In this document: positions 4,539 to 35,296 of the stretch, one piece after another
Layout of the letters: every line of letters starts with the position of its first letter
Numbering within the stretch: the first letter of the stretch is position 1
From: an uncultured delta proteobacterium
GTDB taxonomy: Bacteria > Myxococcota_A > Polyangia > Fen-1088
Length of the DNA stretch: 64,000 nt
Direction: 5' to 3'
Assembly: GCA_963796685.1 (NCBI GenBank)
Contig: CAWCMR010000009.1
Span: 96,001-160,000 of the forward strand
The notes under the pieces: model-generated
The model's database searches: none
Seen by the model: the letters and a program-made list of their open reading frames with translations, nothing else
What the model was told of the DNA's origin: nothing
Translations under genes and position numbers: made by a program

Positions 4539-4698
4539 CCCTGCCACTCGAGAAAGACCCGGCGTAGATAACGGAGAATTCCCAAGACGGTGCAAATCAC
4601 GGTCTATTTCGCCGCCATCATCGCGCCTGGTCTCACGTGCGCCTCTTCTATCAATCATCGTCGTGTTCGCGCGGCAACATTCGGACGTGCGTAGCACC

Positions 4699-4955
4699 GG
4701 CCACAAGCTCTACGGCCCCACCGGCATCGGCGTGCTTTATGGCAAGCAGCGCCTGCTGGAGGCCATGCCGCCCTGGCAGGGCGGTGGCGACATGATCATG
4801 TCCGTGACCTTCGAGCGGACCACCTACGCGCCGCCGCCGGCCAAATTCGAGGCCGGCACGCCCGACATCAGCGGTGCCATCGCTCTCGCCACCGCCATCG
4901 ACTACGTCGAGTCGTTCGGCATGGCCGCCATCGAACGCTACGAGGCCGAGCTGCG
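4699..4955 (+). pseudogene. sufS: Internal fragment of a SufS-type cysteine desulfurase
   Basis: GHKLYGPTGIGVLYGK...PPWQGGGDMI...KFEAGTP motifs. Lacks both termini. Confidence 0.9.
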
Positions 4956-5308
4956 ATCACGTGACCGTGTACCTCGACGTCAAGGACGGTGTCGTCCGTG
5001 ACATCAGCTTCCAAGGCGAGGGCTGCGCCATCGCCAGGGCGTCGGCGTCCATGATGACGTCGGTGGTGAAGGGAAAGTCCTTGGCCGACGCCTCCGAGAC
5101 CTTCAAGCGCTTCCGCCAGATGATCACCGGCGGCCAGGATCCCTGCTTCGACCTCGAAGACCTGGGCAAGCTCGCCGCGTTCTCCGACGTAAGCGCGTTC
5201 CCCGTGCGGGTCAAGTGCGCAAGCCTCGCCTGGCACACCTTGAACGCGGCCATGCACGAGACCACGACCGAGCCCACCAGCGGCAGCGAGCCCAGCAAGG
5301 AGCCCTAA
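4951..5308 (+). pseudogene. sufU: 5'-truncated SufU Fe-S scaffold, fused to sufS' by a deletion
   Basis: DHVTVYL...FQGEGCAIARASASMM...FPVRVKCASLAW. The N-terminus before the NPxCGD motif is missing. Junction GAGCTGCGATCAC. Confidence 0.88.
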
Positions 5309-5310
5309 AA

Positions 5311-5706
5311 GTGACGGCGGCCCCCGATCCCCAGCCCGCACCCGACCCGCCCCCCGACCCGCCATCGGGCTCCACCGCCAACGATGCGGCCACCGCCCAG
5401 TTGGAGCGCCTGGTGTGGCAGGAGCTGCGCGAGTGCTACGACCCGGAGATCCCCGTCAACATCGTGGAGCTGGGGCTCGTCTACGCCATGAGGACCGAGC
5501 CCCTGCCCGAGGGCGGCCACCGGGTCGAGGTCCTCATGACCGTGACCTCTACTGCCTGTGGCATGTCCGAGATCCTGCGCAGCGAGGCCGACGCGCGCAT
5601 TCGCAAGCTGCCCGGCGTGGCGCAGGTCGAGGTCGCCATCACCTTCGACCCGACCTGGACCCCCGAGCTCATGAGCGACGACGCGCGCATGATGCTGAAT
5701 TTGTGA
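5311..5706 (+). CDS. sufT: SufT/DUF59 Fe-S assembly protein (apparently intact, GTG start)
   Basis: CYDPEIPVNIVELGLVY...MTVTSTACGM...FDPTWTPELMSDDAR. Confidence 0.85.
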   Translation: MTAAPDPQPAPDPPPDPPSGSTANDAATAQLERLVWQELRECYDPEIPVNIVELGLVYAMRTEPLPEGGHRVEVLMTVTSTACGMSEILRSEADARIRKLPGVAQVEVAITFDPTWTPELMSDDARMMLNL

Positions 5707-5852
5707 CTGGAGAGAGCGCAGAGGGCGGAGGAGGGCGCGGAGGGCGGAGAAGCTCGGGAAGGTTTTGCCGACCGTGGCCGTGCCTCACCCACACAACGCC
5801 CGACACCCGCATCACGCACCTTCCGTGACCTGCTTGCCGAGAACCCTCCTTC

Positions 5853-7358
5853 ATGGAGGCAGCCGCATGCGCAAAACCTGCGACCGGCTACACCTATGCC
5901 CGCCGGGAGCCGGAGAAGACCGCGCTCTTCCAGGTGCTCCAGCAGCACCTGCTCACCTTCGAGCAAGAGTGGACCGACAAGTCCGACGGCCGCACGCTGC
6001 CCAGCTTCGTCACCGACGAGCTACACGACTTTCTAGGGTGCGGAATCTTGGCGCGAGGCTTCGCACAATTCTTGTGCAAAACCTGCCACGAGCGGTACGT
6101 TGTGGCCTGGAGCTGTAAGGGTCGTGGCTTCTGTCCGAGCTGCGGAGGCAGACGCATGAACGCGGGTGCGCTGACTCTGGTCGATCACGTGCTGCCCGAA
6201 GTGCCCATCCGACAATTCGTGCTCACCCTGCCTTTCCCGCTGAGATTTCCCTTGGCCTTCGACGGGAAATTGCTGGGCCAAGTCCTGCGCATCTTCATCG
6301 ACACCGTCGCGTCCAACTATCGCAAGCGCCTGGCAGATCGGGGCATCCCCGACGGCGAGTGCGGCGCCGTCACGGTCATCCAGCGCGCCAACAGCGACCT
6401 GCGTCTCTCACCGCATTTTCACGTTCTCCAGCTCGATGGAGCGTACGCCCCTGGGCCCGACGGCGGTGCGCCCATCTTCCACCCGGCTCCGGAACTTACC
6501 CAAGAGGACATCCTTGCCATCGTCGCGCGCGCCAGTAAGCGCATCCTCCGCTTCCTCCAACGTCGCGGGGTCATCACCCTGGTGACCGCGCCAGGCGACG
6601 GCGAGATCACCGTCGTCACCGACGAGACCATCGGCGAGAAGGATCCGCTCCTGGCTCGCTTGTTGGCCGCCGCCACCGCTGGCGCCTCGCCTGCCGGCCC
6701 TGCGCACAAGCGGGCTCCCGTGCGCATCGTGCTCGACCCTGGCGCCACGCCCGTGGCCAAGGGCAAACTATGCGGCCAGCAAGCAGGCTTCAACCTGCAT
6801 GCTCAAACCAAAGTCGCCGCCAACGACAAGAAGGGTCGCGAAAACCTGTGCAAGTACATCTTGCGCCCGCCTCTCGCCAACGACCGCCTCAAGATCCTCG
6901 ACGACAAAACCGTCAGGCTCGACTTCAAGAAGCCCTGGACGGATGGCACCTCGTCGGTCGACCTTGCGCCGCTCGCCCTCATTGCCAGGCTAGCCGCGAT
7001 CATCCCTCCTCCTCGTCGCCATGTCGTCAGATATTCGGGGGTTATCTCCTCGCACAGCTCTCTCCGCAGCCAGGTCGTCCCCGTCCCCGCCGTGGCGGCA
7101 CCCGAGGAAAAGGACAAGCCTTCACTGCCGCTCTCGCACTATATTTCTTGGAGCCAGCTCCTCAAAAAGACATTCGAGATCGACACCGTCTGCCCTCGCT
7201 GCAAGAGCCCGCTGCATCTCATCGCCATGATCGAGACCGAGGACACCATCAAGAAGATTCTCAAAGCCATGGGACTGCCTACCGAGGCGCCCAAACTCCG
7301 GCCTGCACGACCGCCGCCCTCGCAATCTGGTGGCGAGGGCGGAGACTGGCTGAACTGA
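5853..7358 (+). CDS. IS91-family HUH (ISCR-like) transposase, allele A
   Basis: Zn motif CKTC...CKGRGFCPSCG, HUH motif PHFH, GFNLHA, LCKYILRPP catalytic Tyr, C-terminal CPRC. Confidence 0.95.
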   Translation: MEAAACAKPATGYTYARREPEKTALFQVLQQHLLTFEQEWTDKSDGRTLPSFVTDELHDFLGCGILARGFAQFLCKTCHERYVVAWSCKGRGFCPSCGGRRMNAGALTLVDHVLPEVPIRQFVLTLPFPLRFPLAFDGKLLGQVLRIFIDTVASNYRKRLADRGIPDGECGAVTVIQRANSDLRLSPHFHVLQLDGAYAPGPDGGAPIFHPAPELTQEDILAIVARASKRILRFLQRRGVITLVTAPGDGEITVVTDETIGEKDPLLARLLAAATAGASPAGPAHKRAPVRIVLDPGATPVAKGKLCGQQAGFNLHAQTKVAANDKKGRENLCKYILRPPLANDRLKILDDKTVRLDFKKPWTDGTSSVDLAPLALIARLAAIIPPPRRHVVRYSGVISSHSSLRSQVVPVPAVAAPEEKDKPSLPLSHYISWSQLLKKTFEIDTVCPRCKSPLHLIAMIETEDTIKKILKAMGLPTEAPKLRPARPPPSQSGGEGGDWLN

Positions 7359-7861
7359 CGGCACGTCGACCAGGGCGGGTTGGAGTAGACTGCCCTGCGT
7401 GCTCGAGAAAGACCCCGTCAGGCCCCAGAAACCCGGTCACGTGCGCCGTACCGACGTGATCGGGGCCAACCTAATGCGGCCCGGCAGGGTTCTCAGACGC
7501 TCAAAAACCCCCTTCGAATCGCCTATGGCCCGTCTCAACCGACGACAATCTCCTTCTCGAGTACAGCACTCCTCGGGCAAATGTCCGGCCCTATGAGAAA
7601 TCGCTCGCCGACAATCTTTACTTCGTGCGCCGCTTCGCGCCTCGGTCCCTCATCTCGGGAACAACGCTGACGGCGGCACAGTGGGACTCGCTACGCACGG
7701 TTGCCGACCAACCAATTGCTTCACCTTGAAACACCAGCTTGAGGCGAAATCCGCAGGTGCAATTTCCACGCGCATAAGATAGCTTGCAAAGGCCCCCCAC
7801 TGCAATGAGCTACTCGACCTAGTCTGCCGCTAGCCTAGACGAACATGGTAGGTTGGCGAAA

Positions 7862-16245: not shown

Positions 16246-18001
16246 ACCGTGGCCGTGCCTCACCCACACAACGCCCGACACCCGCATCACGCACCTTCCG
16301 TGACCTGCTTGCCGAGAACCCTCCTTCATGGAGGCAGCCGCATGCGCAAAACCTGCGACCGGCTACACCTATGCCCGCCGGGAGCCGGAGAAGACCGCGC
16401 TCTTCCAGGTGCTCCAGCAGCACCTGCTCACCTTCGAGCAAGAGTGGACCGACAAGTCCGACGGCCGCACGCTGCCCAGCTTCGTCACCGACGAGCTACA
16501 CGACTTTCTAGGGTGCGGAATCTTGGCGCGAGGCTTCGCACAATTCTTGTGCAAAACCTGCCACGAGCGGTACGTTGTGGCCTGGAGCTGTAAGGGTCGT
16601 GGCTTCTGTCCGAGCTGCGGAGGCAGACGCATGAACGCGGGTGCGCTGACTCTGGTCGATCACGTGCTGCCCGAAGTGCCCATCCGACAATTCGTGCTCA
16701 CCCTGCCTTTCCCGCTGAGATTTCCCTTGGCCTTCGACGGGAAATTGCTGGGCCAAGTCCTGCGCATCTTCATCGACACCGTCGCGTCCAACTATCGCAA
16801 GCGCCTGGCAGATCGGGGCATCCCCGACGGCGAGTGCGGCGCCGTCACGGTCATCCAGCGCGCCAACAGCGACCTGCGTCTCTCACCGCATTTTCACGTT
16901 CTCCAGCTCGATGGAGCGTACGCCCCTGGGCCCGACGGCGGTGCGCCCATCTTCCACCCGGCTCCGGAACTTACCCAAGAGGACATCCTTGCCATCGTCG
17001 CGCGCGCCAGTAAGCGCATCCTCCGCTTCCTCCAACGTCGCGGGGTCATCACCCTGGTGACCGCGCCAGGCGACGGCGAGATCACCGTCGTCACCGACGA
17101 GACCATCGGCGAGAAGGATCCGCTCCTGGCTCGCTTGTTGGCCGCCGCCACCGCTGGCGCCTCGCCTGCCGGCCCTGCGCACAAGCGGGCTCCCGTGCGC
17201 ATCGTGCTCGACCCTGGCGCCACGCCCGTGGCCAAGGGCAAACTATGCGGCCAGCAAGCAGGCTTCAACCTGCATGCTCAAACCAAAGTCGCCGCCAACG
17301 ACAAGAAGGGTCGCGAAAACCTGTGCAAGTACATCTTGCGCCCGCCTCTCGCCAATGACCGCCTCAAGATCCTCGACGACAAAACCGTCAGGCTCGACTT
17401 CAAGAAGCCCTGGTCGGATGGCACATCGTCGGTCGACCTTGCGCCGCTCGCCCTCATTGCGAGGCTAGCCGCGATCATCCCTCCTCCTCGTCGCCATGTC
17501 GTCAGATATTCGGGGGTTATCTCCTCGCACAGCTCTCTCCGCAGCCAGGTCGTCCCCGTCCCCGCCGTGGCGGCACCCGAGGAAAAGGACAAGCCTTCAC
17601 TGCCGCTCTCGCACTATATTTCTTGGAGCCAGCTCCTCAAAAAGACATTCGAGATCGACACCGTCTGCCCTCGCTGCAAGAGCCCGCTGCATCTCATCGC
17701 CATGATCGAGACCGAGGACACCATCAAGAAGATTCTCAAAGCCATGGGACTGCCTACCGAGGCGCCCAAACTCCGGCCTGCACGACCGCCGCCCTCGCAA
17801 TCTGGTGGCGAGGGCGGAGACTGGCTGAACTGACGGCACGTCGACCAGGGCGGGTTGGAGTAGACTGCCCTGCGTGCTCGAGAAAGACCCCGCCAGGCCC
17901 CAGAAACCCGGTCACGTGCGCTGCGCAGACGTGATCGGGGCCGACCTAACGCGTCCCGGCAGGGTTCTCAGACGCTCAAAAACCCCCTTCGAATCGCCTA
18001 T
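16246..18001 (+). mobile_element. IS91/ISCR-like element copy 2, no passenger (core 16251-18001)
   Basis: Homology with other copies starts at ACCGT|GGCCGTGCC. Same CCTAT|GGCC right end. Confidence 0.92.
16328..17833 (+). CDS. IS91-family transposase, allele B
   Basis: Identical to copy 1 except PWSDG versus PWTDG. Confidence 0.95.
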   Translation: MEAAACAKPATGYTYARREPEKTALFQVLQQHLLTFEQEWTDKSDGRTLPSFVTDELHDFLGCGILARGFAQFLCKTCHERYVVAWSCKGRGFCPSCGGRRMNAGALTLVDHVLPEVPIRQFVLTLPFPLRFPLAFDGKLLGQVLRIFIDTVASNYRKRLADRGIPDGECGAVTVIQRANSDLRLSPHFHVLQLDGAYAPGPDGGAPIFHPAPELTQEDILAIVARASKRILRFLQRRGVITLVTAPGDGEITVVTDETIGEKDPLLARLLAAATAGASPAGPAHKRAPVRIVLDPGATPVAKGKLCGQQAGFNLHAQTKVAANDKKGRENLCKYILRPPLANDRLKILDDKTVRLDFKKPWSDGTSSVDLAPLALIARLAAIIPPPRRHVVRYSGVISSHSSLRSQVVPVPAVAAPEEKDKPSLPLSHYISWSQLLKKTFEIDTVCPRCKSPLHLIAMIETEDTIKKILKAMGLPTEAPKLRPARPPPSQSGGEGGDWLN

Positions 18002-18102
18002 GGCCCCTAGGCCACGACGATCTTCCTTCAGATGTTCTCCCTTTCGCACAAGCATGAGATCCCGCTAACGCCCTGCCGTTCGGCAGCAAGCCGGTGCTGT
18101 GA

Positions 18103-18537
18103 TTATAGGCCGCACGGACAACACGAGATCGATCCGCCGCCTGGACCTGACGGCAACGTCCGGCAGGCTGCCGGAGGCTGAGGCCAAGGTCCGGGTCCGG
18201 TACCACCGCACGCCAGGGCGTACTCCTCGGTGTCACACTGATCTGCGCACTCGGAATACGACACGCCTGGTGTCGGATTCGGACCAGGGCATTCGGCGAC
18301 ATTCGTGCTCAAGCAAAGCATGCCACCACCGTTTGAACCCTGACACGAAAGGTAGGTGCGCGCTGCCTGGCATTGTCCCGGTGCCGCATCTCCCGGCTCA
18401 AAGCTTGGTGACCAAGTGCAGGCGGGAAGAGACGCGTCGGACGATGGGGAGCTCCCACCGCATGAACCTACCCATGCCAAGGACAGAAGGAGTGCGAGAA
18501 CCGGTCGCGCAGAAGTTTGGAGAGAGCACGTCTTCAT
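18103..18537 (-). CDS. Small Cys-rich lipoprotein, possible gene cassette
   Basis: Signal with VGSC lipobox. Bracketed by related attC-half-like motifs at 18062 and 18582. Confidence 0.6.
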   Translation of the reverse strand: MKTCSLQTSARPVLALLLSLAWVGSCGGSSPSSDASLPACTWSPSFEPGDAAPGQCQAARTYLSCQGSNGGGMLCLSTNVAECPGPNPTPGVSYSECADQCDTEEYALACGGTGPGPWPQPPAACRTLPSGPGGGSISCCPCGL

Positions 18538-18542
18538 GAAGA

Positions 18543-19277
18543 TCACTCCGTTCGAGCTGTCGAGAGGCCTTCGTCGTTCGTCTGCCGAACGCTCTGCCGC
18601 TCGACTGCAAGCCCACCGCCGAGCTGGCATCTCGATTCTACACGGTGTTCCTGCGGCGACCATATCCGCTTCAACCAGCCAAGGCTCGTAGGACCGGAAC
18701 TTACGAGCCTCAGCCTTGCAGGTAGACCGCACCAAGGTCTATGGAACGGCCATGCTCGAACCTTGACCGATGCCAGTTCCATCAGACCCCAGCGCGCAGC
18801 TCCATCATCTGACGGTTTCTTCGTGTATCCCGACACGGCGGCATCCAGGGCCTTCTGTCCGGCCGGGGAAAGTACACGCTTCGCGAAAATGACCCCGTTC
18901 TTCAGAAGTTGCTTGCGCTGGGCGCCGTACACCGTGATCTTATAGATAGATCCAGTGTTCTGGTCGTCTCCGAGATGCATCATCCATGTGGCCACTCCGC
19001 CTTTGCTGAGCTTACAGTCGAAAGTGCCGATCTCCCCCACCGGGAAGCCGGAGGCGTCCGCAACGGTCTTGTCGAGGACTTCCTTCTTGAGTCCCCCCGG
19101 CGCCGCGCAGCTTTTCTTGAGAATCGGGTCCAGATCGCCACCACTGGTGAGGACCTTCGGGGCAGCCGTTGCAGAGGAAGGGCAAGCAAGTACGACAGAC
19201 GCCGCCACGAACATAGTCCCGATCAGAAACGCCCAAGAGTGACTCTTGACGAAACCCATGTTGACCTGCGCTTTCAT
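18543..19277 (-). CDS. Secreted hypothetical protein; C-terminus possibly read-through
   Basis: Signal peptide (FLIGTMFVAASVVLA...ATA) and a plausible globular body. Confidence 0.55.
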   Translation of the reverse strand: MKAQVNMGFVKSHSWAFLIGTMFVAASVVLACPSSATAAPKVLTSGGDLDPILKKSCAAPGGLKKEVLDKTVADASGFPVGEIGTFDCKLSKGGVATWMMHLGDDQNTGSIYKITVYGAQRKQLLKNGVIFAKRVLSPAGQKALDAAVSGYTKKPSDDGAARWGLMELASVKVRAWPFHRPWCGLPARLRLVSSGPTSLGWLKRIWSPQEHRVESRCQLGGGLAVERQSVRQTNDEGLSTARTE

Positions 19278-19529: not shown

Positions 19530-19908
19530 TCAGCGGTCGAGGGGGCTACGCACGCCAAGGCCGCCGCGGTTGAGGACGTGGGTGTAGATCATCGTGGTGC
19601 TCACGTCCCGGTGGCCGAGCAGTTCTTGGATGGTGCGGATGTCGTAGCCGTCTTCCAGCATGTGGGTTGCGAAGGAATGACGCAGCGTGTGTGGGGTGAC
19701 GGGCTTGGTGATGTGGGCGGCGATGGCGGCCTTGCGGACGGCGCGCTGGATGACGGTTTCGTGAAGGTGGTGGCGGCGCACATCACCGGTCGCGGGGTCG
19801 GCATAGGTGCGCGTGGCGGGGAAGACCCATTGCCAAATCCATTCGCGAGGGGCGTTGGGATACTTCCTTGCCAGGGCTTCGGGCAAGGCGACGGCGCCCG
19901 CGCCCTGG
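19530..19908 (-). pseudogene. intI: Integron integrase, C-terminal fragment
   Basis: IntI-specific patch [24 protein letters not shown], then [41 protein letters not shown]. Confidence 0.92.
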
Positions 19909-20007
19909 GTATAGGGGATTCCTTGGCATGTAGGTAGGTGTAGTAGACGTAATGTTTCTTACCGGACATTGAAAGCAAAGTGGTGCTTGAACGGCCTATG
20001 CTCACAA

Positions 20008-20460
20008 CAATCAGACCGTGGGCAGGATGCCTGCTGGCGTCAGTGTCACGAACGCCAATCACTTGCGCTTCGAAAGAAACCTGTTCACGCAGATGGGTGG
20101 GACGGGCCTCGATTTCATCTCAGGTACCCACGATGACATGGAGGTGCCATCTACGTGCTTTCCAACCAGGGCACTGCCGACGAGATGCAGTACAACCACA
20201 TCCACGACTACGCGTGCAGCAAGTGGGCCGACTACGGTTGTAACGGGCTGTACTTGGACGAAGAGACCTCTGGCTACACTGTGGCCCAAAGCGGCATGAT
20301 CGATTGTCCGACCAACATCGTCCAAAACAAAAACGGGACAAATACTGTCACGGACAGTGGCGCCAACCCGCAAGGGGCGCAAAACACCATCGCGACCGCC
20401 GGCATCGAGGTCGCCTACGCCGACATCAAAACCCTGACCGTCCTCCCCGCTACATTCTGA
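20008..20460 (+). pseudogene. Fragments of a parallel beta-helix secreted protein with an internal deletion near 20140
   Basis: FERNLFTQMGGTGLDF in one frame joined to GGAIYVLSNQ...GLYLDEETSG in another. Confidence 0.6.
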
Positions 20461-20469
20461 CTTCCAGAG

Positions 20470-20768
20470 ACTCGATCAACCATCAAGCCGTCGTCACCAT
20501 CCCGGCCGCCGACCTTGGAACCTGGGTTCATCCTTGCGGCGTCTTCGACGGCGCCACGTATCTCCTTTACCGCGATGGCGCGCTCGCAGCGACCACGGTC
20601 GATGCGACGCCGCCGCAGGCGAGCGTCGATGCGACCTGGGCGATCGGCGCTCGCGCTCCTCAGCAGGATAGCGGCGTTGACGATCAGCTGCAGGGGCAAA
20701 TCGATGACGTCAGGATCTATGGTCGCGCGCTGAGCTCGGCGGAGGTCGAGGCGCTGTATCAAAGGTGA
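20470..20768 (+). pseudogene. LamG/ConA-like domain, C-terminal fragment
   Basis: TWVH.CGVFDG...LYRDG...IGAR...GQIDDVRIYGRALSSAEV. No start. Confidence 0.7.
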
Positions 20769-20807
20769 AGAAGCCATCCGCCGACACGTTTCTGCAGGAC
20801 CAGCGAA

Positions 20808-21011
20808 TTATTTCGGCGGCGGTCCATAGAGCGTCGCACGCTTCTGTATGTAGCCGAAAGAGGCGCTGACGGGCCAGGTCAATTCCTGCAAGAGTGTGCC
20901 GTTCGAGCTTACCTCGTGGAGCACGCCCTGGGTCGAATAGGCGACGATCGTGTTGCCGTTGGGTAGGCGTTGCACGTCGCCCATGATGTCGTTCTGAATG
21001 GCCGGGTTCGC
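20808..21011 (-). pseudogene. Aryl-sulfotransferase-like beta-propeller, C-terminal fragment
   Basis: GDVQRLPNGNTIVAY...FGY..KRATLYGPP. Cut by the left boundary of IS91 copy 3. Confidence 0.65.
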
Positions 21012-21630
21012 TAGCACCGGCCACAAGCTCTACGGCCCCACCGGCATCGGCGTGCTTTATGGCAAGCAGCGCCTGCTGGAGGCCATGCCGCCCTGGCAGG
21101 GCGGTGGCGACATGATCATGTCCGTGACCTTCGAGCGGACCACCTACGCGCCGCCGCCGGCCAAATTCGAGGCCGGCACGCCCGACATCAGCGGTGCCAT
21201 CGCTCTCGCCACCGCCATCGACTACGTCGAGTCGTTCGGCATGGCCGCCATCGAACGCTACGAGGCCGAGCTGCGATCACGTGACCGTGTACCTCGACGT
21301 CAAGGACGGTGTCGTCCGTGACATCAGCTTCCAAGGCGAGGGCTGCGCCATCGCCAGGGCGTCGGCGTCCATGATGACGTCGGTGGTGAAGGGAAAGTCC
21401 TTGGCCGACGCCTCCGAGACCTTCAAGCGCTTCCGCCAGATGATCACCGGCGGCCAGGATCCCTGCTTCGACCTCGAAGACCTGGGCAAGCTCGCCGCGT
21501 TCTCCGACGTAAGCGCGTTCCCCGTGCGGGTCAAGTGCGCAAGCCTCGCCTGGCACACCTTGAACGCGGCCATGCACGAGACCACGACCGAGCCCACCAG
21601 CGGCAGCGAGCCCAGCAAGGAGCCCTAAAA

Positions 21631-22026
21631 GTGACGGCGGCCCCCGATCCCCAGCCCGCACCCGACCCGCCCCCCGACCCGCCATCGGGCTCCACCGCCA
21701 ACGATGCGGCCACCGCCCAGTTGGAGCGCCTGGTGTGGCAGGAGCTGCGCGAGTGCTACGACCCGGAGATCCCCGTCAACATCGTGGAGCTGGGGCTCGT
21801 CTACGCCATGAGGACCGAGCCCCTGCCCGAGGGCGGCCACCGGGTCGAGGTCCTCATGACCGTGACCTCTACTGCCTGTGGCATGTCCGAGATCCTGCGC
21901 AGCGAGGCCGACGCGCGCATTCGCAAGCTGCCCGGCGTGGCGCAGGTCGAGGTCGCCATCACCTTCGACCCGACCTGGACCCCCGAGCTCATGAGCGACG
22001 ACGCGCGCATGATGCTGAATTTGTGA
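21631..22026 (+). CDS. sufT: SufT/DUF59 protein, second copy
   Basis: Identical to 5311-5706. Confidence 0.85.
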   Translation: MTAAPDPQPAPDPPPDPPSGSTANDAATAQLERLVWQELRECYDPEIPVNIVELGLVYAMRTEPLPEGGHRVEVLMTVTSTACGMSEILRSEADARIRKLPGVAQVEVAITFDPTWTPELMSDDARMMLNL

Positions 22027-22172
22027 CTGGAGAGAGCGCAGAGGGCGGAGGAGGGCGCGGAGGGCGGAGAAGCTCGGGAAGGTTTTGCCGACCGTGGCCG
22101 TGCCTCACCCACACAACGCCCGACACCCGCATCACGCACCTTCCGTGACCTGCTTGCCGAGAACCCTCCTTC

Positions 22173-23678
22173 ATGGAGGCAGCCGCATGCGCAAAACCTG
22201 CGACCGGCTACACCTATGCCCGCCGGGAGCCGGAGAAGACCGCGCTCTTCCAGGTGCTCCAGCAGCACCTGCTCACCTTCGAGCAAGAGTGGACCGACAA
22301 GTCCGACGGCCGCACGCTGCCCAGCTTCGTCACCGACGAGCTACACGACTTTCTAGGGTGCGGAATCTTGGCGCGAGGCTTCGCACAATTCTTGTGCAAA
22401 ACCTGCCACGAGCGGTACGTTGTGGCCTGGAGCTGTAAGGGTCGTGGCTTCTGTCCGAGCTGCGGAGGCAGACGCATGAACGCGGGTGCGCTGACTCTGG
22501 TCGATCACGTGCTGCCCGAAGTGCCCATCCGACAATTCGTGCTCACCCTGCCTTTCCCGCTGAGATTTCCCTTGGCCTTCGACGGGAAATTGCTGGGCCA
22601 AGTCCTGCGCATCTTCATCGACACCGTCGCGTCCAACTATCGCAAGCGCCTGGCAGATCGGGGCATCCCCGACGGCGAGTGCGGCGCCGTCACGGTCATC
22701 CAGCGCGCCAACAGCGACCTGCGTCTCTCACCGCATTTTCACGTTCTCCAGCTCGATGGAGCGTACGCCCCTGGGCCCGACGGCGGTGCGCCCATCTTCC
22801 ACCCGGCTCCGGAACTTACCCAAGAGGACATCCTTGCCATCGTCGCGCGCGCCAGTAAGCGCATCCTCCGCTTCCTCCAACGTCGCGGGGTCATCACCCT
22901 GGTGACCGCGCCAGGCGACGGCGAGATCACCGTCGTCACCGACGAGACCATCGGCGAGAAGGATCCGCTCCTGGCTCGCTTGTTGGCCGCCGCCACCGCT
23001 GGCGCCTCGCCTGCCGGCCCTGCGCACAAGCGGGCTCCCGTGCGCATCGTGCTCGACCCTGGCGCCACGCCCGTGGCCAAGGGCAAACTATGCGGCCAGC
23101 AAGCAGGCTTCAACCTGCATGCTCAAACCAAAGTCGCCGCCAACGACAAGAAGGGTCGCGAAAACCTGTGCAAGTACATCTTGCGCCCGCCTCTCGCCAA
23201 CGACCGCCTCAAGATCCTCGACGACAAAACCGTCAGGCTCGACTTCAAGAAGCCCTGGACGGATGGCACCTCGTCGGTCGACCTTGCGCCGCTCGCCCTC
23301 ATTGCCAGGCTAGCCGCGATCATCCCTCCTCCTCGTCGCCATGTCGTCAGATATTCGGGGGTTATCTCCTCGCACAGCTCTCTCCGCAGCCAGGTCGTCC
23401 CCGTCCCCGCCGTGGCGGCACCCGAGGAAAAGGACAAGCCTTCACTGCCGCTCTCGCACTATATTTCTTGGAGCCAGCTCCTCAAAAAGACATTCGAGAT
23501 CGACACCGTCTGCCCTCGCTGCAAGAGCCCGCTGCATCTCATCGCCATGATCGAGACCGAGGACACCATCAAGAAGATTCTCAAAGCCATGGGACTGCCT
23601 ACCGAGGCGCCCAAACTCCGGCCTGCACGACCGCCGCCCTCGCAATCTGGTGGCGAGGGCGGAGACTGGCTGAACTGA
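22173..23678 (+). CDS. IS91-family transposase, allele A
   Basis: Identical protein to copy 1. Confidence 0.95.
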   Translation: MEAAACAKPATGYTYARREPEKTALFQVLQQHLLTFEQEWTDKSDGRTLPSFVTDELHDFLGCGILARGFAQFLCKTCHERYVVAWSCKGRGFCPSCGGRRMNAGALTLVDHVLPEVPIRQFVLTLPFPLRFPLAFDGKLLGQVLRIFIDTVASNYRKRLADRGIPDGECGAVTVIQRANSDLRLSPHFHVLQLDGAYAPGPDGGAPIFHPAPELTQEDILAIVARASKRILRFLQRRGVITLVTAPGDGEITVVTDETIGEKDPLLARLLAAATAGASPAGPAHKRAPVRIVLDPGATPVAKGKLCGQQAGFNLHAQTKVAANDKKGRENLCKYILRPPLANDRLKILDDKTVRLDFKKPWTDGTSSVDLAPLALIARLAAIIPPPRRHVVRYSGVISSHSSLRSQVVPVPAVAAPEEKDKPSLPLSHYISWSQLLKKTFEIDTVCPRCKSPLHLIAMIETEDTIKKILKAMGLPTEAPKLRPARPPPSQSGGEGGDWLN

Positions 23679-23844
23679 CGGCACGTCGACCAGGGCGGGT
23701 TGGAGTAGACTGCCCTGCGTGCTCGAGAAAGACCCCGTCAGGCCCCAGAAACCCGGTCACGTGCGCCGTACCGACGTGATCGGGGCCAACCTAATGCGGC
23801 CCGGCAGGGTTCTCGGACGCTCAAAAACCCTTCGAATCGCCTAT

Positions 23845-24364
23845 GGCCCGCCGACAGGCCGTTGAATCCTTTGCGCAGGTCCACGGGCGCGCCATACGCA
23901 AACACGCGCACAGCGCGAGTCAGCCCGATCACCGGCTACCCAAGCTCCTGCAGCATCGCCATCGCCAACTTGACCGGCAAGCCTTCCAGGCGATATCCGC
24001 GCGGCGAAACCAAAGCAAGGCAAGGTATCGCCGTCACGGGGGGCTCCGCCCGCACGACCTTCACGGGCACCATGCGACTGACCTTCGACGAGCTTCCCCA
24101 CAAGTACAGCGTCGCAGCGCATATGCCGATCTGCTTCGCCACCACGTCCATCGCCAAGCCTTGCGCTCGTAGCTCCTTGGCCAGGCGCAAAGCCTTGGCC
24201 TTCATCTCCGTCGTGTACGGGCGTGCACCTTTCCGTCGGGGACCACGCCACTGCAGAACCTCGTCCCGAAACGCTTTGATCTTCTCGTCCATGGGAACCT
24301 CCTTGGGCCAGGACGGTCCCACAGCGCGCGGTTTACGTCAGGACGGGGCCGGGCGAGGACTTAC
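23845..24364 (-). mobile_element. IS66 left-end remnant: IR, tnpA (24292-23936), tnpB start cut by IS91 copy 3
   Basis: IR GTAAGTCCTCGCCCGGCCCCGTCC at 24364. TnpA HTH. TnpB N-terminus VRVFAYGAPVDLRKGFNGL ends at GGCC. Confidence 0.85.
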
Positions 24365-26565: not shown

Positions 26566-26810
26566 TACTTCTCCTTCCCATTCTCGTCGGGCACCAGGAG
26601 ATCTCTCGGATCGCAAGCGAGGGCGGCCGCAATTGCGTAGATGTTCTCCAACGACACGTTGCGCTTCCCGCGCTCCACGGAACTCACATACGTTCGGTGC
26701 AGCCTCGCACGGTCGGCCAGGGCTTCCTGCGAAAGCCCAACCGCCCTACGCAACTTTCTGACGTTGCGTCCGAAAAGTACAGCGGGGCTCTCACCCCTCT
26801 CGTAAACCAC
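26565..26810 (-). CDS. XRE HTH restriction-modification controller (C.PvuII-like)
   Basis: FGRNVRKLR...LSQEALADRARLHRTYVSSVERGKRNVSLENI. Confidence 0.85.
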   Translation of the reverse strand: MVYERGESPAVLFGRNVRKLRRAVGLSQEALADRARLHRTYVSSVERGKRNVSLENIYAIAAALACDPRDLLVPDENGKEK

Positions 26811-26833
26811 CAGGCGGAGAATAAAGCGTTGAT

Positions 26834-26859
26834 GATTTTAGAGCGACAGACTATAAGTC
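26834..26859 (-). promoter_or_regulatory. Tandem C-box operator GACTTATAGTC-TGTC-GCTCTAAAATC
   Basis: GACT-N3-AGTC palindrome, 4-bp spacer and weaker second box directly upstream of the C gene, like the PvuII arrangement. Confidence 0.8.
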
Positions 26860-26870
26860 ACGCATCTGCC

Positions 26871-28700: not shown

Positions 28701-28728
28701 CCCTGCAGAGCACTGCCCAGGTCGCGCC

Positions 28729-29259
28729 TTGATTCGCGTCGATGGATACCTAACGCAACAGAAGTTGGAGACAGCCCTCAGGTCAATCGTTGGCGAAGGC
28801 GCATGGCGTGGGCGCGAGGTCCACGTTTCGCAAGGGGGGAAGCATCGCTGGGACATGGCGTACCAGTGGCAGGAGCAGTTCGTCGTGGTCGAGTTCGACG
28901 GGGACGAGCACTATCGGCATTCACTGAAGATCAAGGCGGACCGCCAAAAGGCCGAAGTGGCTCAACGTAGTGGGCACAAGGTGATTCGAATCCCATATTG
29001 GGTTCAACTAACTACCGAGACGTTGCAGCACTTCTTCGGCCTCCATACCGATATCGACCAAAACTTCGCGCATGGATTCATAACTACGAAGCTGTTTCCA
29101 GCATCGTTCTGCGAGCAAGGCATCGCGCGGTTCGAGGAAGAAATGGCGGCGCTTCCGAATGCGGTCAGGGTCGCAGTCGTATGCTCGCTTCACGACCGAG
29201 CGGCTGAGCACGGATGGGAGTACGTGCTTCCGCGTCGGCTGATGTCAATTGTCGGTTAG
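28729..29259 (+). CDS. DUF559/Vsr-like endonuclease
   Basis: RWDMAY...VVEFDGDEHY...DRQK...GHKVIRIPYW. Confidence 0.7.
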   Translation: MIRVDGYLTQQKLETALRSIVGEGAWRGREVHVSQGGKHRWDMAYQWQEQFVVVEFDGDEHYRHSLKIKADRQKAEVAQRSGHKVIRIPYWVQLTTETLQHFFGLHTDIDQNFAHGFITTKLFPASFCEQGIARFEEEMAALPNAVRVAVVCSLHDRAAEHGWEYVLPRRLMSIVG

Positions 29260-29297
29260 GCCGTTCCCCGGTCACAACTGGCTGAAGCGCAAGGCCG

Positions 29298-29807
29298 TCA
29301 CACTGTTTCTTCGAGCTTGCCGCCAATTCCGGAGTAGAGGAGTCTTCCGTGGGCTTTCACGTACGACAACGGAACCTTGGGGTTATTGATGTCCTTGCCG
29401 CCATCACGATGCCACTTTTCTTCCCAGGCCGTGTACCACTGTTCCATCTCGGTCGGGGTGAGCAAGTAGATCTCTTTCAGTTCGATTCCCTCGTAAGTCG
29501 CGAAGATCCAATCCACCATTCTGTACTTGGCGATGATCACGGGATTGAGGTGATGGTGGGTTGTGAACTGCTGCGTACGCTGCAGGTTCACGGTTTTCAC
29601 CTCGTACTCCTTCCCCTGAGCATCGCGGACATCGTTTCCTTCCCGTGACTTCAAGACAGTGATACCGAGCAGCAGCGCAATCTGGAGGAGCTTGCCGCCA
29701 TTGTCCTGGAAGATATCGGGGATACCGTGCTTCACCGCAAGCTCTTGGTACAGTCGAATTCCGGGAAAGAGTTTCCGGAGCAGATTGGCATCACGATGGG
29801 CCCTCAC
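29298..29807 (-). CDS. pvuIIR: PvuII-family type II restriction endonuclease
   Basis: YQELAVKHGIPDIFQDNGGKLLQ, REGND...EYEVK, THHHLNPVIIAKYR, KDINNPK closely match R.PvuII as I recall it. Confidence 0.9.
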   Translation of the reverse strand: MRAHRDANLLRKLFPGIRLYQELAVKHGIPDIFQDNGGKLLQIALLLGITVLKSREGNDVRDAQGKEYEVKTVNLQRTQQFTTHHHLNPVIIAKYRMVDWIFATYEGIELKEIYLLTPTEMEQWYTAWEEKWHRDGGKDINNPKVPLSYVKAHGRLLYSGIGGKLEETV

Positions 29808-29875
29808 TTTGAGGCTGCGGGATAGCTGCTTCCGTATCCTGGGTCTGGGCACGAATCGAACGTTCGCGGGTCCCC

Positions 29876-29901
29876 CGCTCATGGTCTACAGACTCAACGT
29901 C
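29876..29901 (-). promoter_or_regulatory. Second tandem C-box GACGTTGAGTC-TGTA-GACCATGAGCG upstream of the PvuII-like gene
   Basis: GAC-N5-GTC box, TGTA spacer and weaker second box, about 70 bp before the R start. Confidence 0.65.
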
Positions 29902-30206: not shown

Positions 30207-30335
30207 CGTGCTCAAGAAAGACCCCGTCAGGCCCCAGAAACCCGGTCACGTGCGCCGTACCGACGTGATCGGGGCCAACCTAATGCGGCCCGGCAGGGTT
30301 CTCAGACGCTCAAAAACCCCCTTCGAATCGCCTAT
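30207..30335 (+). mobile_element. 129-bp ori-only fragment of the IS91-like element
   Basis: Matches the last 129 bp of the full copies and is followed by GGCC. Confidence 0.9.
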
Positions 30336-30922
30336 GGCCAGGCGTCTAGAGCGCCGAATGCACAGCCGCGTTGCCAGCGGAGCCGCTCCGCACGGCTTCG
30401 CGCTCCTCACCCTGACTCTAGCGACGCCTGATCCTATCCGTGGCTACCGCGTGCTTTGCAAGGCGCGTCTGCGTTTCTTCCGTGGAACCCTTGCACGCTC
30501 TGTCATGTCAGGCGGAGAAGGCCACGTGCATGCTGAGCCTGCCCGAGGGGGCGAGGCGCAAGTCTGGAACGTCCACATGCATGCCATCGTCGAACTGGGG
30601 CAACCTCGTCGCAGCGTGGATACCGGCGCGCTTCAGGCGATGTGGGCGCAGGCTCTCGCTCACTTCGGTGCACGGGGTTCCCTGGACCTACGTCAACGGC
30701 GCAATCTGACTGCCGACTCGTTGCGGGCGTGCAGGGATGAAGTGCGCGGGTGACAGTTTCATGCCTGCCGCATTCTACGTTTCCAAGCGGAAGCCCGCCG
30801 ACTGGGCCAAGGACGGTGCAGCGGAGATCGTCGTGCGGTTCAAGCTCATGGTGGAGTCGCCACGCTTGGTGTCTACCTGGGGAACATGGCGAAAGCCGCG
30901 GCGGAAATCACAGCACGCATGA
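30336..30922 (+). pseudogene. Rolling-circle HUH Rep (Rep_1-like), 5'-truncated and frameshifted near 30750
   Basis: Motif I LLTLT and motif II WNVHMHAIV; motif III-like YVSK in the next frame. Confidence 0.65.
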
Positions 30923-31462: not shown

Positions 31463-31586
31463 GTCATCCCTCCAGTTGAAGAAAGGCTCGTCTCGGCCGA
31501 ACGCGGATAGGTCTGTCGGCACCAGAATGCGTATATTACCCCATCCGTGAGGTTTTTGGTGGAGTCGTTTGCCGCTACGGGTGGAC

Positions 31587-31883: not shown

Positions 31884-31966
31884 TTGTCCTGTCCTCACGG
31901 ACGCCGGCCTGAAACCTTGGGACTGCCCGAGACGGCCTATGCTAGATTTCAGGTGAGGTGGTTTTC

Positions 31967-32160: not shown

Positions 32161-32360
32161 TGCTGGACGACGGTGCCGCCCGCGCTTGGGCCTCCCGCCT
32201 CGGACTTCGCTGCGTGGGCACGGTCGGGATCCTCATCGAAGCGAAGCGATGCGGGCATCTTCAGCGAGTGCGACCAGAACTAGATCGCCTCGCCCAACTT
32301 GGTTTTCGGATGGCAGCGCACCTTCGCCAATATGCGCTTGCGGAATCTGGGGAAGAGTAG
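32152..32360 (+). pseudogene. DUF3368 PIN-like protein, C-terminal fragment
   Basis: LLDDGAAR..A..LGL...GTVGILIEAK..G. Confidence 0.7.
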
Positions 32361-32682
32361 CCCCGCTCGCTTCGCTCAGCTTCCAAGGCGAGGGCTGCGC
32401 CATCGCCAGGGCGTCGGCGTCCATGATGACGTCGGTGGTGAAGGGAAAGTCCTTGGCCGACGCCTCCGAGACCTTCAAGCGCTTCCGCCAGATGATCACC
32501 GGCGGCCAGGATCCCTGCTTCGACCTCGAAGACCTGGGCAAGCTCGCCGCGTTCTCCGACGTAAGCGCGTTCCCCGTGCGGGTCAAGTGCGCAAGCCTCG
32601 CCTGGCACACCTTGAACGCGGCCATGCACGAGACCACGACCGAGCCCACCAGCGGCAGCGAGCCCAGCAAGGAGCCCTAAAA

Positions 32683-33078
32683 GTGACGGCGGCCCCCGAT
32701 CCCCAGCCCGCACCCGACCCGCCCCCCGACCCGCCATCGGGCTCCACCGCCAACGATGCGGCCACCGCCCAGTTGGAGCGCCTGGTGTGGCAGGAGCTGC
32801 GCGAGTGCTACGACCCGGAGATCCCCGTCAACATCGTGGAGCTGGGGCTCGTCTACGCCATGAGGACCGAGCCCCTGCCCGAGGGCGGCCACCGGGTCGA
32901 GGTCCTCATGACCGTGACCTCTACTGCCTGTGGCATGTCCGAGATCCTGCGCAGCGAGGCCGACGCGCGCATTCGCAAGCTGCCCGGCGTGGCGCAGGTC
33001 GAGGTCGCCATCACCTTCGACCCGACCTGGACCCCCGAGCTCATGAGCGACGACGCGCGCATGATGCTGAATTTGTGA
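32683..33078 (+). CDS. sufT: SufT/DUF59 protein, third copy
   Basis: Identical to 5311-5706. Confidence 0.85.
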   Translation: MTAAPDPQPAPDPPPDPPSGSTANDAATAQLERLVWQELRECYDPEIPVNIVELGLVYAMRTEPLPEGGHRVEVLMTVTSTACGMSEILRSEADARIRKLPGVAQVEVAITFDPTWTPELMSDDARMMLNL

Positions 33079-33224
33079 CTGGAGAGAGCGCAGAGGGCGG
33101 AGGAGGGCGCGGAGGGCGGAGAAGCTCGGGAAGGTTTTGCCGACCGTGGCCGTGCCTCACCCACACAACGCCCGACACCCGCATCACGCACCTTCCGTGA
33201 CCTGCTTGCCGAGAACCCTCCTTC

Positions 33225-34730
33225 ATGGAGGCAGCCGCATGCGCAAAACCTGCGACCGGCTACACCTATGCCCGCCGGGAGCCGGAGAAGACCGCGCTCT
33301 TCCAGGTGCTCCAGCAGCACCTGCTCACCTTCGAGCAAGAGTGGACCGACAAGTCCGACGGCCGCACGCTGCCCAGCTTCGTCACCGACGAGCTACACGA
33401 CTTTCTAGGGTGCGGAATCTTGGCGCGAGGCTTCGCACAATTCTTGTGCAAAACCTGCCACGAGCGGTACGTTGTGGCCTGGAGCTGTAAGGGTCGTGGC
33501 TTCTGTCCGAGCTGCGGAGGCAGACGCATGAACGCGGGTGCGCTGACTCTGGTCGATCACGTGCTGCCCGAAGTGCCCATCCGACAATTCGTGCTCACCC
33601 TGCCTTTCCCGCTGAGATTTCCCTTGGCCTTCGACGGGAAATTGCTGGGCCAAGTCCTGCGCATCTTCATCGACACCGTCGCGTCCAACTATCGCAAGCG
33701 CCTGGCAGATCGGGGCATCCCCGACGGCGAGTGCGGCGCCGTCACGGTCATCCAGCGCGCCAACAGCGACCTGCGTCTCTCACCGCATTTTCACGTTCTC
33801 CAGCTCGATGGAGCGTACGCCCCTGGGCCCGACGGCGGTGCGCCCATCTTCCACCCGGCTCCGGAACTTACCCAAGAGGACATCCTTGCCATCGTCGCGC
33901 GCGCCAGTAAGCGCATCCTCCGCTTCCTCCAACGTCGCGGGGTCATCACCCTGGTGACCGCGCCAGGCGACGGCGAGATCACCGTCGTCACCGACGAGAC
34001 CATCGGCGAGAAGGATCCGCTCCTGGCTCGCTTGTTGGCCGCCGCCACCGCTGGCGCCTCGCCTGCCGGCCCTGCGCACAAGCGGGCTCCCGTGCGCATC
34101 GTGCTCGACCCTGGCGCCACGCCCGTGGCCAAGGGCAAACTATGCGGCCAGCAAGCAGGCTTCAACCTGCATGCTCAAACCAAAGTCGCCGCCAACGACA
34201 AGAAGGGTCGCGAAAACCTGTGCAAGTACATCTTGCGCCCGCCTCTCGCCAATGACCGCCTCAAGATCCTCGACGACAAAACCGTCAGGCTCGACTTCAA
34301 GAAGCCCTGGTCGGATGGCACATCGTCGGTCGACCTTGCGCCGCTCGCCCTCATTGCGAGGCTAGCCGCGATCATCCCTCCTCCTCGTCGCCATGTCGTC
34401 AGATATTCGGGGGTTATCTCCTCGCACAGCTCTCTCCGCAGCCAGGTCGTCCCCGTCCCCGCCGTGGCGGCACCCGAGGAAAAGGACAAGCCTTCACTGC
34501 CGCTCTCGCACTATATTTCTTGGAGCCAGCTCCTCAAAAAGACATTCGAGATCGACACCGTCTGCCCTCGCTGCAAGAGCCCGCTGCATCTCATCGCCAT
34601 GATCGAGACCGAGGACACCATCAAGAAGATTCTCAAAGCCATGGGACTGCCTACCGAGGCGCCCAAACTCCGGCCTGCACGACCGCCGCCCTCGCAATCT
34701 GGTGGCGAGGGCGGAGACTGGCTGAACTGA
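33225..34730 (+). CDS. IS91-family transposase, allele B
   Basis: Identical protein to copy 2. Confidence 0.95.
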   Translation: MEAAACAKPATGYTYARREPEKTALFQVLQQHLLTFEQEWTDKSDGRTLPSFVTDELHDFLGCGILARGFAQFLCKTCHERYVVAWSCKGRGFCPSCGGRRMNAGALTLVDHVLPEVPIRQFVLTLPFPLRFPLAFDGKLLGQVLRIFIDTVASNYRKRLADRGIPDGECGAVTVIQRANSDLRLSPHFHVLQLDGAYAPGPDGGAPIFHPAPELTQEDILAIVARASKRILRFLQRRGVITLVTAPGDGEITVVTDETIGEKDPLLARLLAAATAGASPAGPAHKRAPVRIVLDPGATPVAKGKLCGQQAGFNLHAQTKVAANDKKGRENLCKYILRPPLANDRLKILDDKTVRLDFKKPWSDGTSSVDLAPLALIARLAAIIPPPRRHVVRYSGVISSHSSLRSQVVPVPAVAAPEEKDKPSLPLSHYISWSQLLKKTFEIDTVCPRCKSPLHLIAMIETEDTIKKILKAMGLPTEAPKLRPARPPPSQSGGEGGDWLN

Positions 34731-34898
34731 CGGCACGTCGACCAGGGCGGGTTGGAGTAGACTGCCCTGCGTGCTCAAGAAAGACCCCGCCAGGCCCCAG
34801 AAACCCGGTCACGTGCGCTGCGCAGACGTGATCGGGGCCGACATAACGCGTCCCGGCAGGGTTCTCAGACGCTCAAAAACCCCCTTCGAATCGCCTAT

Positions 34899-35296
34899 GG
34901 CCTGCCTGGTCGAAGGGGCGAGCGATCTTCGCGAGCGGTAGCCCCTTCCCTCCGTGCGCCGTCGGATCCAAGGTCATGATTCCCGGGCAGGCCAACAATT
35001 GCTACATCTTTCCGGGCGTGGGACTTGGCATCGTGGCGGCAGAAGCCCGGCACGTCACCGACCGGATGTTCGCGCAGGCCGCTCGCGCCCTGGCATCTGC
35101 CGCCCGTGAAGAAGATCTCGAAGTTGGGCGCATCTATCCCGAGCTCAAGCGAATTCGCGAAGTCTCTGCTCGGATTGGCGTCGCTGTTGCCGAAATCGCC
35201 TTCGAAAGCGGTTTGGCTGGCGTGAAACGTCCAGCGAGCATATCCGAGTTGGTCGAGGCCAAGATGTGGTTACCCAATTACGAGTGCTTTGCTTAA
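34899..35296 (+). pseudogene. Malic enzyme, C-terminal fragment
   Basis: GRAIFASGSPF...PGQANNCYIFPGVGLG. Begins at the GGCC after copy 4. Confidence 0.85.

Follow-up and report, generated by a model that had tools for sequence, protein, structure and literature searches.

A family of ISCR-like insertion sequences with a fixed origin end, graded left ends and a suf gene passenger in an uncultured Polyangia genome

Introduction

ISCR elements are blamed for the assembly of resistance regions, but what is known of their movement has been deduced from static structures alone. The question of how such elements copy themselves, and of what they take with them, is raised by a stretch of 64,000 nucleotides (hereafter the window; positions 96,001 to 160,000 of contig CAWCMR010000009.1, assembly GCA_963796685.1) from an uncultured delta proteobacterium of the class Polyangia. 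This window holds several copies of an insertion sequence (IS) which end alike on the right, begin at different points on the left and bear pieces of suf genes. An earlier note on this DNA had described an ISCR-like rolling-circle element with a fixed origin end, nested left ends and a suf passenger, a description which the domain scores and copy ends reported here support. We consider it probable that origin-anchored rolling-circle copying of this ISCR-like IS overruns the left end of the IS itself, suf DNA being carried along. Elements of this kind have been described before, with IS801 of Pseudomonas syringae as a close precedent in nature; what this genome adds is a new clade, a passenger of housekeeping DNA, a series of cleanly nested copies and evidence for CCTAT being followed by four bases of the element itself.

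Results

Thirteen co-oriented copies with one right end

In what follows, plain positions are those of the window, which corresponds to G000:C9:96001-160000 (genome G000, contig C9), and positions within the element are given as q, window position 4692 being q1. Copy extents were determined using the basic local alignment search tool (BLAST), with the first copy as the query against the window (Table 1). The 14-mer TTCGAATCGCCTAT occurs five times in the window, always on the + strand (ends at 7526, 18001, 23844, 30335 and 34898), against 0.01 expected by chance, and none of 100 shuffles gave five. Each occurrence is followed by GGCC and then by unrelated DNA. The 14-mer count, the shuffles and the flanks thus confirm the five co-oriented copies with a common terminus of the earlier note, and BLAST returned the nested sizes that it had claimed, only the numbering of copies 4 and 5 being swapped. 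Two of these copies (4692-7530 and 21012-23848) are 99.9% identical, with one mismatch and a 2-bp gap. The true start of copy 1 lies near 4548, not at 4692, as 144 further bases on its left are common to three copies outside the window; in the C9 copies at 6305, 14485 and 63724, homology with copy 1 opens at TCGAGAAAGACCC, in three different left contexts.

Throughout the genome, 13 copies were found, all on the + strand of C9 between 3.7 and 131 kb; they are 99.2-100% identical to one another and all 13 are terminated by CCTAT-GGCC. This 127-kb span replaces the local spread within 30 kb that had been suggested previously. The other 25 contigs contain no copy above 95% identity, and degenerate relatives (74-95%) lie on C10, C12, C6 and C25, with more fragments on C9. 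The probability that the remaining copies would all match the orientation of the first by chance is 2^-12. GC skew does not decide on a replication-strand bias, as the negative skew of C9:1-135 kb is made by the copies themselves (skew of the element, -0.106) and becomes +0.004 without them. Over whole contigs, the sign of the skew on C9, C5 and C10 is consistent with a single strand rule, which is weak evidence.

An ISCR-like transposase, intact and recently active

The transposase gene of the element encodes 501 amino acids. Its product matches Pfam PF04986 (Y2_Tnp) with 79 bits against a cut-off of 20.9 (6e-22, profile positions 1-179/183) and PF14319 (Zn_Tnp_IS91) with 56.8 bits against 26.3 (2e-15), with CPSCG at residue 94. 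The triplet H-F-H lies at residues 188-190, inside the domain match, and is accompanied by the tyrosine-containing blocks KYILRPP (334) and RYSG (393). The best NCBIfam model is NF052416, ISCR_clade_Ia, matched over positions 18-506/509 with 291 bits; the IS91 equivalog NF033538 gives 89.3 bits, under its cut-off of 125. Among the PLSDB plasmids, the transposase found its best matches in ISCR-type "IS91 family transposases" from resistance plasmids, with which it shares 36% identity over 98% of its length. Judged by its predicted protein, the element is an IS91-superfamily insertion sequence, closest to the ISCR group; by the same measure it is placed outside ISCR clade Ia proper, 291 bits being far under the curated NCBIfam cut-off of 925.

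The 501-amino-acid open reading frame is intact in all 11 uninterrupted copies, with 0-2 amino acid differences, and no difference exists over 1759 bp between the copies at C9:30794, 77019 and 100545. The recent activity proposed in the earlier note is supported by both observations. A 3.3-kb insertion, which shows a TTCGA overlap of 5 bp, interrupts one C9 copy.

The IS proper opens at a recurrent left end and closes at CCTAT. Its structured origin end, of about 180 bp, lies downstream of the transposase gene and contains a second stem besides the 30-bp subterminal palindrome. No similarity between the left end and the origin end was seen by eye (no alignment of the ends was made). A target-site duplication is absent from 12 of the 13 copies, whose flanks match by 0-3 nt, as chance would give; the remaining copy has GGCCT on both sides.

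Left ends are many and the right end is one

Among the 13 copies, a single right end stands against 11 distinct left ends, at q -2687, -1260, -144, 1, 199, 313, 469, 678, 1021, 1080/81 and 2707, and no right-truncated copy exists on C9. The three copies identical over 1759 bp, in the order given above, begin at 1081, 469 and -144. Single-nucleotide polymorphisms (SNPs) divide the copies into two sub-lineages, with a nested series within each. Two copies that fall into different SNP groups begin at q1080/81, a point where a deletion in a C5 copy also ends. One pair of copies has 2.5 kb of extra upstream DNA in common and different right flanks. The IS is also present, at 81-90% identity, in related genomes within the genus; across lineages, homology begins at q1121, and the copies of G001 and G004 again have a common right end and unequal left extents. 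This asymmetry of the ends fits origin-anchored rolling-circle copying with leaky termination, and it was observed in experiments with IS91, IS1294 and IS801 (PMC13181058, PMC3189936).

The stops recur at q1080/81 and at the TCGAGAAAGACCC motif, and look arbitrary elsewhere. The 13-mer TCGAGAAAGACCC is also found inside the origin region (7403-7415), and the 133-bp mini-copy starts 5 nt before a TC(A/G)AGAAAGACCC motif which is the same as that at the -144 end. The left flanks of three of the 13 copies (C9:61184, 117012 and 128376), unrelated to one another, end in TTCGC (simulated P about 0.0009), and eight of the 13 end, by eye, in purine-C; this pattern hints at a sequence preference at the left junction. 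The leader of copy 1 was examined as a diverged mini-copy of the origin end and rejected as such, its global alignment score being 6 against a shuffle mean of 7.5; leader and origin region have only the 13-mer and a GGTC..ACGTGCGCC stretch in common.

The variety of left ends could also have arisen after insertion, if full-length composites had inserted and had then been trimmed by deletions, other insertions and recombination between copies. Such an origin was the conclusion of the authors of a retrospective analysis of IS801, who saw most genomic IS801 fragments as reorganisations and not as one-ended events (PMC3189936). In the present genome it would be in agreement with the mosaic nature of some copies (the two members of a 5.2-kb duplicate pair carry different origin-region alleles), with flanks that form a patchwork of short fragments (1108, 783 and 490 bp) and with the lack of a termination signature at any left end. 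Random deletion should nevertheless strike both sides, and it would have to account for one intact right end, for endpoints that recur identically in independent contexts and different SNP lineages, and for the same asymmetry in G001 and G004; copies that are 100% identical over 1.76 kb with different left ends leave little time for separate deletions. We thus regard later trimming as an unlikely source of the left ends.

The four bases after CCTAT

The GGCC that follows every copy was previously taken as the insertion target, which would mean a canonical IS91-type insertion immediately 5' of a host GGCC that is required for the next jump. In favour of such a target, GGCC and its variant GGTC resemble the tetranucleotides reported beside oriIS in the IS91 family (CTTG and GTTC, and GTCC for IS1294b; PMC13181058), and GGCC stands after all 13 copies. 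Two particular junctions also fit a target: a relic origin-like segment in the passenger, ...GCGTAGCACC, adjoins GGCC in sufS at a place where native sufS also has GGCC, and the copy with GGCCT as a direct repeat around it is that at C9:45402.

At all seven junctions where an uninterrupted homologue of the right flank allowed the comparison, however, GGCC is missing from that homologue. At the junction of copy 5, the malic-enzyme genes of G002 (95%) and G004 (83%) run from ...GAAGCCTA directly into TGCCTGG, where the element reads ...CGCCTAT-GGCC-TGCCTGG; the homologue thus has CCTA at the place of GGCC. TGCG is found instead in the 99.5% duplicate, on C5, of the copy 2 flank, and ACCC in G010 (89%) for C9:45402. 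At four junctions of relatives' copies, the G000 sequence reads AAGG/AGGG (sufU), CTTT, CGAT and ATCA, against GGTC or GGCC in the element; the last of these is a weak match of 75%, and for one of the four, a left end of family B (see below) is an alternative reading. The four bases are moreover invariant within a lineage and different between lineages, unlike the several targets of IS91, for which experiments gave about 51% CTTG, 41% GTTC and 8% others (PMC13181058, Table 2). Indeed, 30 right ends from relatives comprise GGTC 17 times, GGCC 6 times, TGAT twice, and GCAC, GCGC, GGGC, GGAC and GTGC once each, and which tetranucleotide occurs goes with the terminal-sequence sub-family. Where the terminus is repeated in short tandem arrays, the tetranucleotide is included in the repeat. 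Since GGCC is palindromic, it cannot account for the single orientation of all 13 copies. In one ISCR of plasmids, CCTAT and ACTC are likewise kept before the sequences diverge, the match ending at 311-324 with at least five continuations among 41 records, many of them related.

On these sequence comparisons, GGCC most likely represents the last four bases of the element and would travel with it; its role as a host target, which the homologues do not bear out, appears improbable. The earlier note had also placed GGCC just inside the left boundaries. It is present 7 and 5 nt inside two distinct ones (TAGCACC/GGCC and ACCGT/GGCC, the slash marking the boundary), and there is no enrichment, GGCC lying within 10 nt on the inner side of 2 of the 11 left ends, against about 0.9 expected from its frequency of one in some 110 bp. 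The same holds for GGNC, which was seen by eye within about 8 nt of 4 of the 11, the rough expectation from composition being about 4.

Another type of right end was observed in some G004 copies (L041 and L043) and in metagenome contigs of the runs X1 and X8 (at window position 18000), which end in ...CCTA and continue as GTGATGC.... Two different downstream sequences start with GTGATG, and both are IS-free in G000 (C6:277601 and C13:62995). These ends are either the mark of another element that targets the same spot or a clue to the nick site.

The suf passenger and its source

The passenger of this family (family A) is recognisable as suf DNA. Its sufS fragment is 92.9% identical to C5:5550-5803, and relative to the native operon a 413-bp deletion (C5:5803 to C5:6216) has removed the end of sufS and the start of sufU. 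The longest family A copy (C9:13369-17467) retains sufD' and the 5' part of sufS, and the 151-bp leader there replaces 421 bp of sufS. The suf pieces are pseudogene fragments, except for a complete sufT-like open reading frame, given which the passenger may not be wholly dead DNA. Judged by their left ends, 8 of the 13 copies reach far enough to span this frame, the domain having been read in copy 1.

Cores of SufB/D were found at three places only: at C5:1.9-4.7 kb, on C4 and, in fragmentary form, at C9:13.4-14.1 kb. The native suf operon occupies C5:1-6984, and the earlier note had pointed to its downstream side as a place where an IS might sit just after sufT. A related IS is indeed found there, starting at about 7093, some 108 bp past sufT; it belongs to another family (family B), with 74% nucleotide identity to the IS of the window and an intact open frame of 508 amino acids. 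Four further family B copies lie downstream on C5, at 10.8, 24.9, 34.0 and 41.8 kb, co-oriented and suf-bearing, with different left ends and, in most cases, internal deletions of the transposase gene. All five right ends of family B in G000 (four on C5, one on C9) read ...GCTTAT-GCAC.

The passenger of family A and the native suf genes are 92-93% identical, and the 104-bp spacer after sufT in family A is unrelated to the native spacer; the capture therefore did not occur at the present native locus, and another, related suf locus was its source. The origin of the passenger in a suf operon, as first proposed, thus holds, together with the position of an IS after native sufT, and copying from the present native locus does not. 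The differences between passenger and native genes (6, 9 and 23 at codon positions 1, 2 and 3) point to a divergence in which selection, in another lineage, played some part.

The same internal transposase deletion (C5:7379-8353) occurs in the family B derivatives at C5:10850-12996 and 34032-36169 and in G004:C12. The 3' ends of these G000 and G004 derivatives are 99.8% identical, which suggests, at the level of sequence, a recent transfer between species. Contig C4 (11.2 kb) is a 98.6% duplicate of the suf-operon end C5:1-7378 and stops inside the IS; this duplication points to strain heterogeneity or to a second suf locus in the bin.

Flanks, mosaic region and assembly

The DNA on either side of the copies is mostly accessory and not common to relatives. 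The 783-bp right flank of copy 2 is all that C5 has in common with the surroundings of this copy. The 1108-bp fragment on the left of copy 3 comes from a gene that is intact and uninterrupted in G002, with unrelated surroundings on both sides in both genomes. On the right of copy 5 stands the 3' end of a malic-enzyme gene, of which the genome lacks the remainder; no match to the N-terminal domain PF00390 was found anywhere in the genome, nor did 1.5 kb of sequence lying upstream of the malic genes in G002 and G004 give a match. Similarly, the sequence upstream of the G010 junction shows no similarity to the left flank of C9:45402, and the left flanks of relatives' copies match other things than the upstream half of the right-flank homologue. 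A search of relatives for both flanks of the copies yielded right-flank homologues only and no empty site with both halves. From these comparisons we infer a loss of flanks. The copy region has a G+C content of 0.60-0.63, against 0.63-0.67 in the rest of the contig.

The 127-kb region is a patchwork of short fragments joined at element ends. As the other half of the target is never found across the element, this mosaic needs further rearrangement, either insertion coupled to a loss on one side or recombination between co-oriented copies that deleted the intervening DNA. Three further candidates were rejected. The short right-flank fragments do not end at a second origin-like site. Relic origin ends in the left flanks are not in excess, a relaxed scan (up to 3 errors) giving, beyond the 13 copy ends, 17 extra hits in 140 kb, one of which is the family B end at C9:49439, against 9-21 in five shuffles. 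Integration of circles by recombination into resident copies is unsupported for the 5.2-kb pair, whose left parts are 99.9% alike, as its left flanks are not origin ends.

The array could be an artefact, if few copies had been threaded repeatedly through the assembly or if flanks had been mis-paired across a repeat of 1.8-5.5 kb. The genome is bin-like (26 contigs, completeness 88.6%, contamination 6.5%) and C4 duplicates the start of C5; mis-pairing would explain left and right flanks that never match, and the public short-read contigs (four runs from four studies) stop at the repeat edges. Each copy nevertheless has unique flanks and its own left end, the DNA between copies is unique except for the one 5.2-kb pair, and private SNPs as well as a 2-bp deletion are found in the copies. 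Nested left ends cannot result from one repeat that was collapsed or threaded, and the same architecture is present in the independently assembled G001 and G004. An assembly artefact is thus very improbable as the source of the pattern.

In the four public runs, which are from soil or peat, contigs cover the IS at 95% identity or more. All four continue left of q1080 into the family A spacer, and the passenger-bearing form therefore exists beyond this genome. These contigs attest the element and some of its junctions, and none of the four runs covers the left flank of copy 2.

Neighbouring features

Clustered regularly interspaced short palindromic repeats (CRISPR) lie beside copy 1, in an array of 71 repeats (37-bp repeat; C9:95492-100538, window 1..4538, + strand). 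Copy 1 starts 9 bp after the last repeat and cuts a spacer, no repeats being found beyond the element. A second array of 34 repeats is located at C9:89586-91966. The 3.3-kb insertion in one IS copy (C9:66357-69702) encodes a large serine recombinase of 686 amino acids (Resolvase, Recombinase and Zn_ribbon_recom) and a 330-amino-acid open reading frame of no family; it occurs at the same IS position in G001, with 98.4% identity over the 497 bp compared. A restriction-modification pair lies between two copies (window 26697-29882), namely a gene for an N6_N4 DNA methylase (667 amino acids, + strand) and one for a PvuII-type endonuclease (194 amino acids, - strand). A tandem array with an 18-bp period, at window 39818-40303, comprises about 27 units of 60-79% identity and probably consists of coding repeats.

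Table 1. Features of the element, its copies, its passenger and selected flanks, in window coordinates.
Feature	Position	Strand	Evidence or remark
Copy 1, long form (left end -144)	4548..7530	+	right end CCTAT+GGCC
Leader, 151 bp	4548..4698	+	13-mer TCGAGAAAGACCC at its start
sufS fragment, 254 bp, in frame, without start or end	4699..4952	+	Pfam Aminotran_5, 2e-32
sufU 3' part	4952..5308	+	Pfam NifU_N, 9e-14
sufT-like open reading frame, domain complete	5311..5706	+	Pfam FeS_assembly_P, positions 4-73/73
IS proper, recurrent left end (q1081) to CCTAT, about 1.76 kb	5772..7526	+	copy starts at q1080/1081
Left-end hairpin TCACG-N7-CGTGA	5812..5828	+	lineage-shared homology starts here (q1121)
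Transposase gene, 501 amino acids	5853..7358	+	PF04986, PF14319, NF052416
Subterminal palindrome of origin region, 30 bp	7434..7463	+	two alleles, differing mainly in the centre
Origin-end stretch around the terminus, written ...GAATCGCCTATGGCCN...
Origin terminus TTCGAATCGCCTAT plus GGCC	7513..7530	+	14-mer search, copy ends
Copy 2, minimal form, 1.76 kb	16246..18005	+	transposase gene 16328-17833
Right flank of copy 2, 783 bp	18006..18788	+	99.5% duplicate of C5:138628-137846; directly follows GGCC
Left flank of copy 3, 1108-bp gene fragment	19904..21011	+	99.8% to G002:C17 gene
Copy 3, left end q1, 2.84 kb	21012..23848	+	transposase gene 22173-23678
Mini-copy, 133 bp, origin end only	30207..30339	+	BLAST
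Copy 5, left end q313, 2.53 kb	32376..34902	+	transposase gene 33225-34730
Right flank of copy 5, malic-enzyme gene 3' end	34903..35394	+	Pfam Malic_M

Discussion

From a mechanistic standpoint, the copies described here can be arranged in a simple scheme. By analogy with IS91 and IS801, copying would start at the fixed origin end and proceed back through the transposase gene; it would often fail to stop at the left end of the IS itself, and a new copy would then carry a variable length of the DNA upstream of its parent. In a suf operon, the ancestor of the family may have stood some 105 bp past sufT, and the family would since have dragged along sufD'/sufS'/sufU'/sufT pieces. We infer the direction and mode of this copying, which we hold to be probable, from static structures.

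Several observations weigh against this scheme. The boundary at q1121, common to the lineages, is a stop in none of the 13 copies despite its intact hairpin, and the left ends start with no shared tetranucleotide, unlike the one-ended products of IS801 and IS91. At none of the seven testable junctions was the upstream part of the homologue found on the left of the element, and no simple insertion is thus demonstrable. The two junctions that fit a GGCC target, the reorganisations favoured by the IS801 authors, the 92-93% identity to native suf and the unrelated spacer have to be counted on the same side, as does a layout that rests on a single assembly, at whose repeats short-read contigs break.

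We also put forward, as a possible but doubtful extension, that the copies form a natural recent record of ISCR-type movement, in which the element keeps its own four bases past CCTAT, needs no defined left end, fuses its origin end to arbitrary DNA and loses the other half of the target. This loss could be an event resembling adjacent deletion, or one that is strand-specific. If true, such movement would explain together the co-orientation of all 13 copies, the mosaic of gene fragments and, by extension, the position of ISCR1 before many genes.

Among known systems, the ISCR elements of plasmids and integrons (ISCR1, ISCR2) are the closest. They have in common with the present element a full-length match to the same protein model, the similarity of the transposases mentioned above, the same gene order, an origin end 170-230 bp past the stop codon, and a CCTAT core with four fixed bases followed by variable DNA. 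In both, the passenger upstream is constant and the DNA on the oriIS side varies, with 13 different right flanks here; ISCR1 is described as lying 24 bp after sul1 and before 93 groups of downstream genes (PMC6218425). Unlike those of ISCR, the present copies lie on a chromosome-like contig of a soil or peat bacterium and not on a clinical plasmid, their passenger is housekeeping suf DNA instead of resistance genes, many recent copies with graded left ends reside in one genome, and the terminus is GGCC, not ACTC. Transposition of ISCR elements had, as of 2018, not been shown by experiment (PMC6218425), and a 2026 paper still states that these elements "may transpose" by rolling circle (PMC13393415).

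IS801 provides the closest natural precedent for the nested series and the 133-bp mini-copy, with right-end fragments of 229, 360 and 679 nt and longer copies with 290-1431 nt of upstream DNA, the origin end being kept (PMC3189936). Its products, however, open with a tetranucleotide (GAAC and similar), whereas none of the 11 left ends here opens with GGCC or GGNC, and its transposase is only distantly related, as the score for the IS91 equivalog indicates (89 bits, cut-off 125). With IS91, IS1294 and IS1294b, the element shares an HUH rolling-circle transposase, distinct oriIS and terIS ends with palindromes, and the lack of a target duplication; in contrast to them, it has no orf121, its tetranucleotide behaves as a part of the element and its ancestral left end is unused. 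One-ended transposition is reported for IS91 and IS1294 at 1-14% (PMC13181058), and, as far as static structures tell, the 13 copies with one right end and 11 left ends resemble the one-ended pattern of IS91, IS1294 and IS801. Helitrons, which capture fragments of host genes by reading past a weak terminator hairpin (PMC4778049), are alike in outcome only, as an analogy, with a different transposase architecture and in a different kingdom.

Thirteen near-identical copies with intact transposase genes and graded left ends come closer to a time series of copying than the static structures from which ISCR movement has been inferred, and sister families occur in related species as well as, in at least four studies, in metagenomes of soil and peat. 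For laboratory tests, the family offers a transposase, candidate sites at which copying stops and a defined origin end of some 180 bp. If the departure from the IS91 target rule is confirmed, ISCR boundaries would have to be annotated differently. The capture mechanism acts on housekeeping DNA in soil bacteria, and thus beyond the resistance genes that are under clinical selection.

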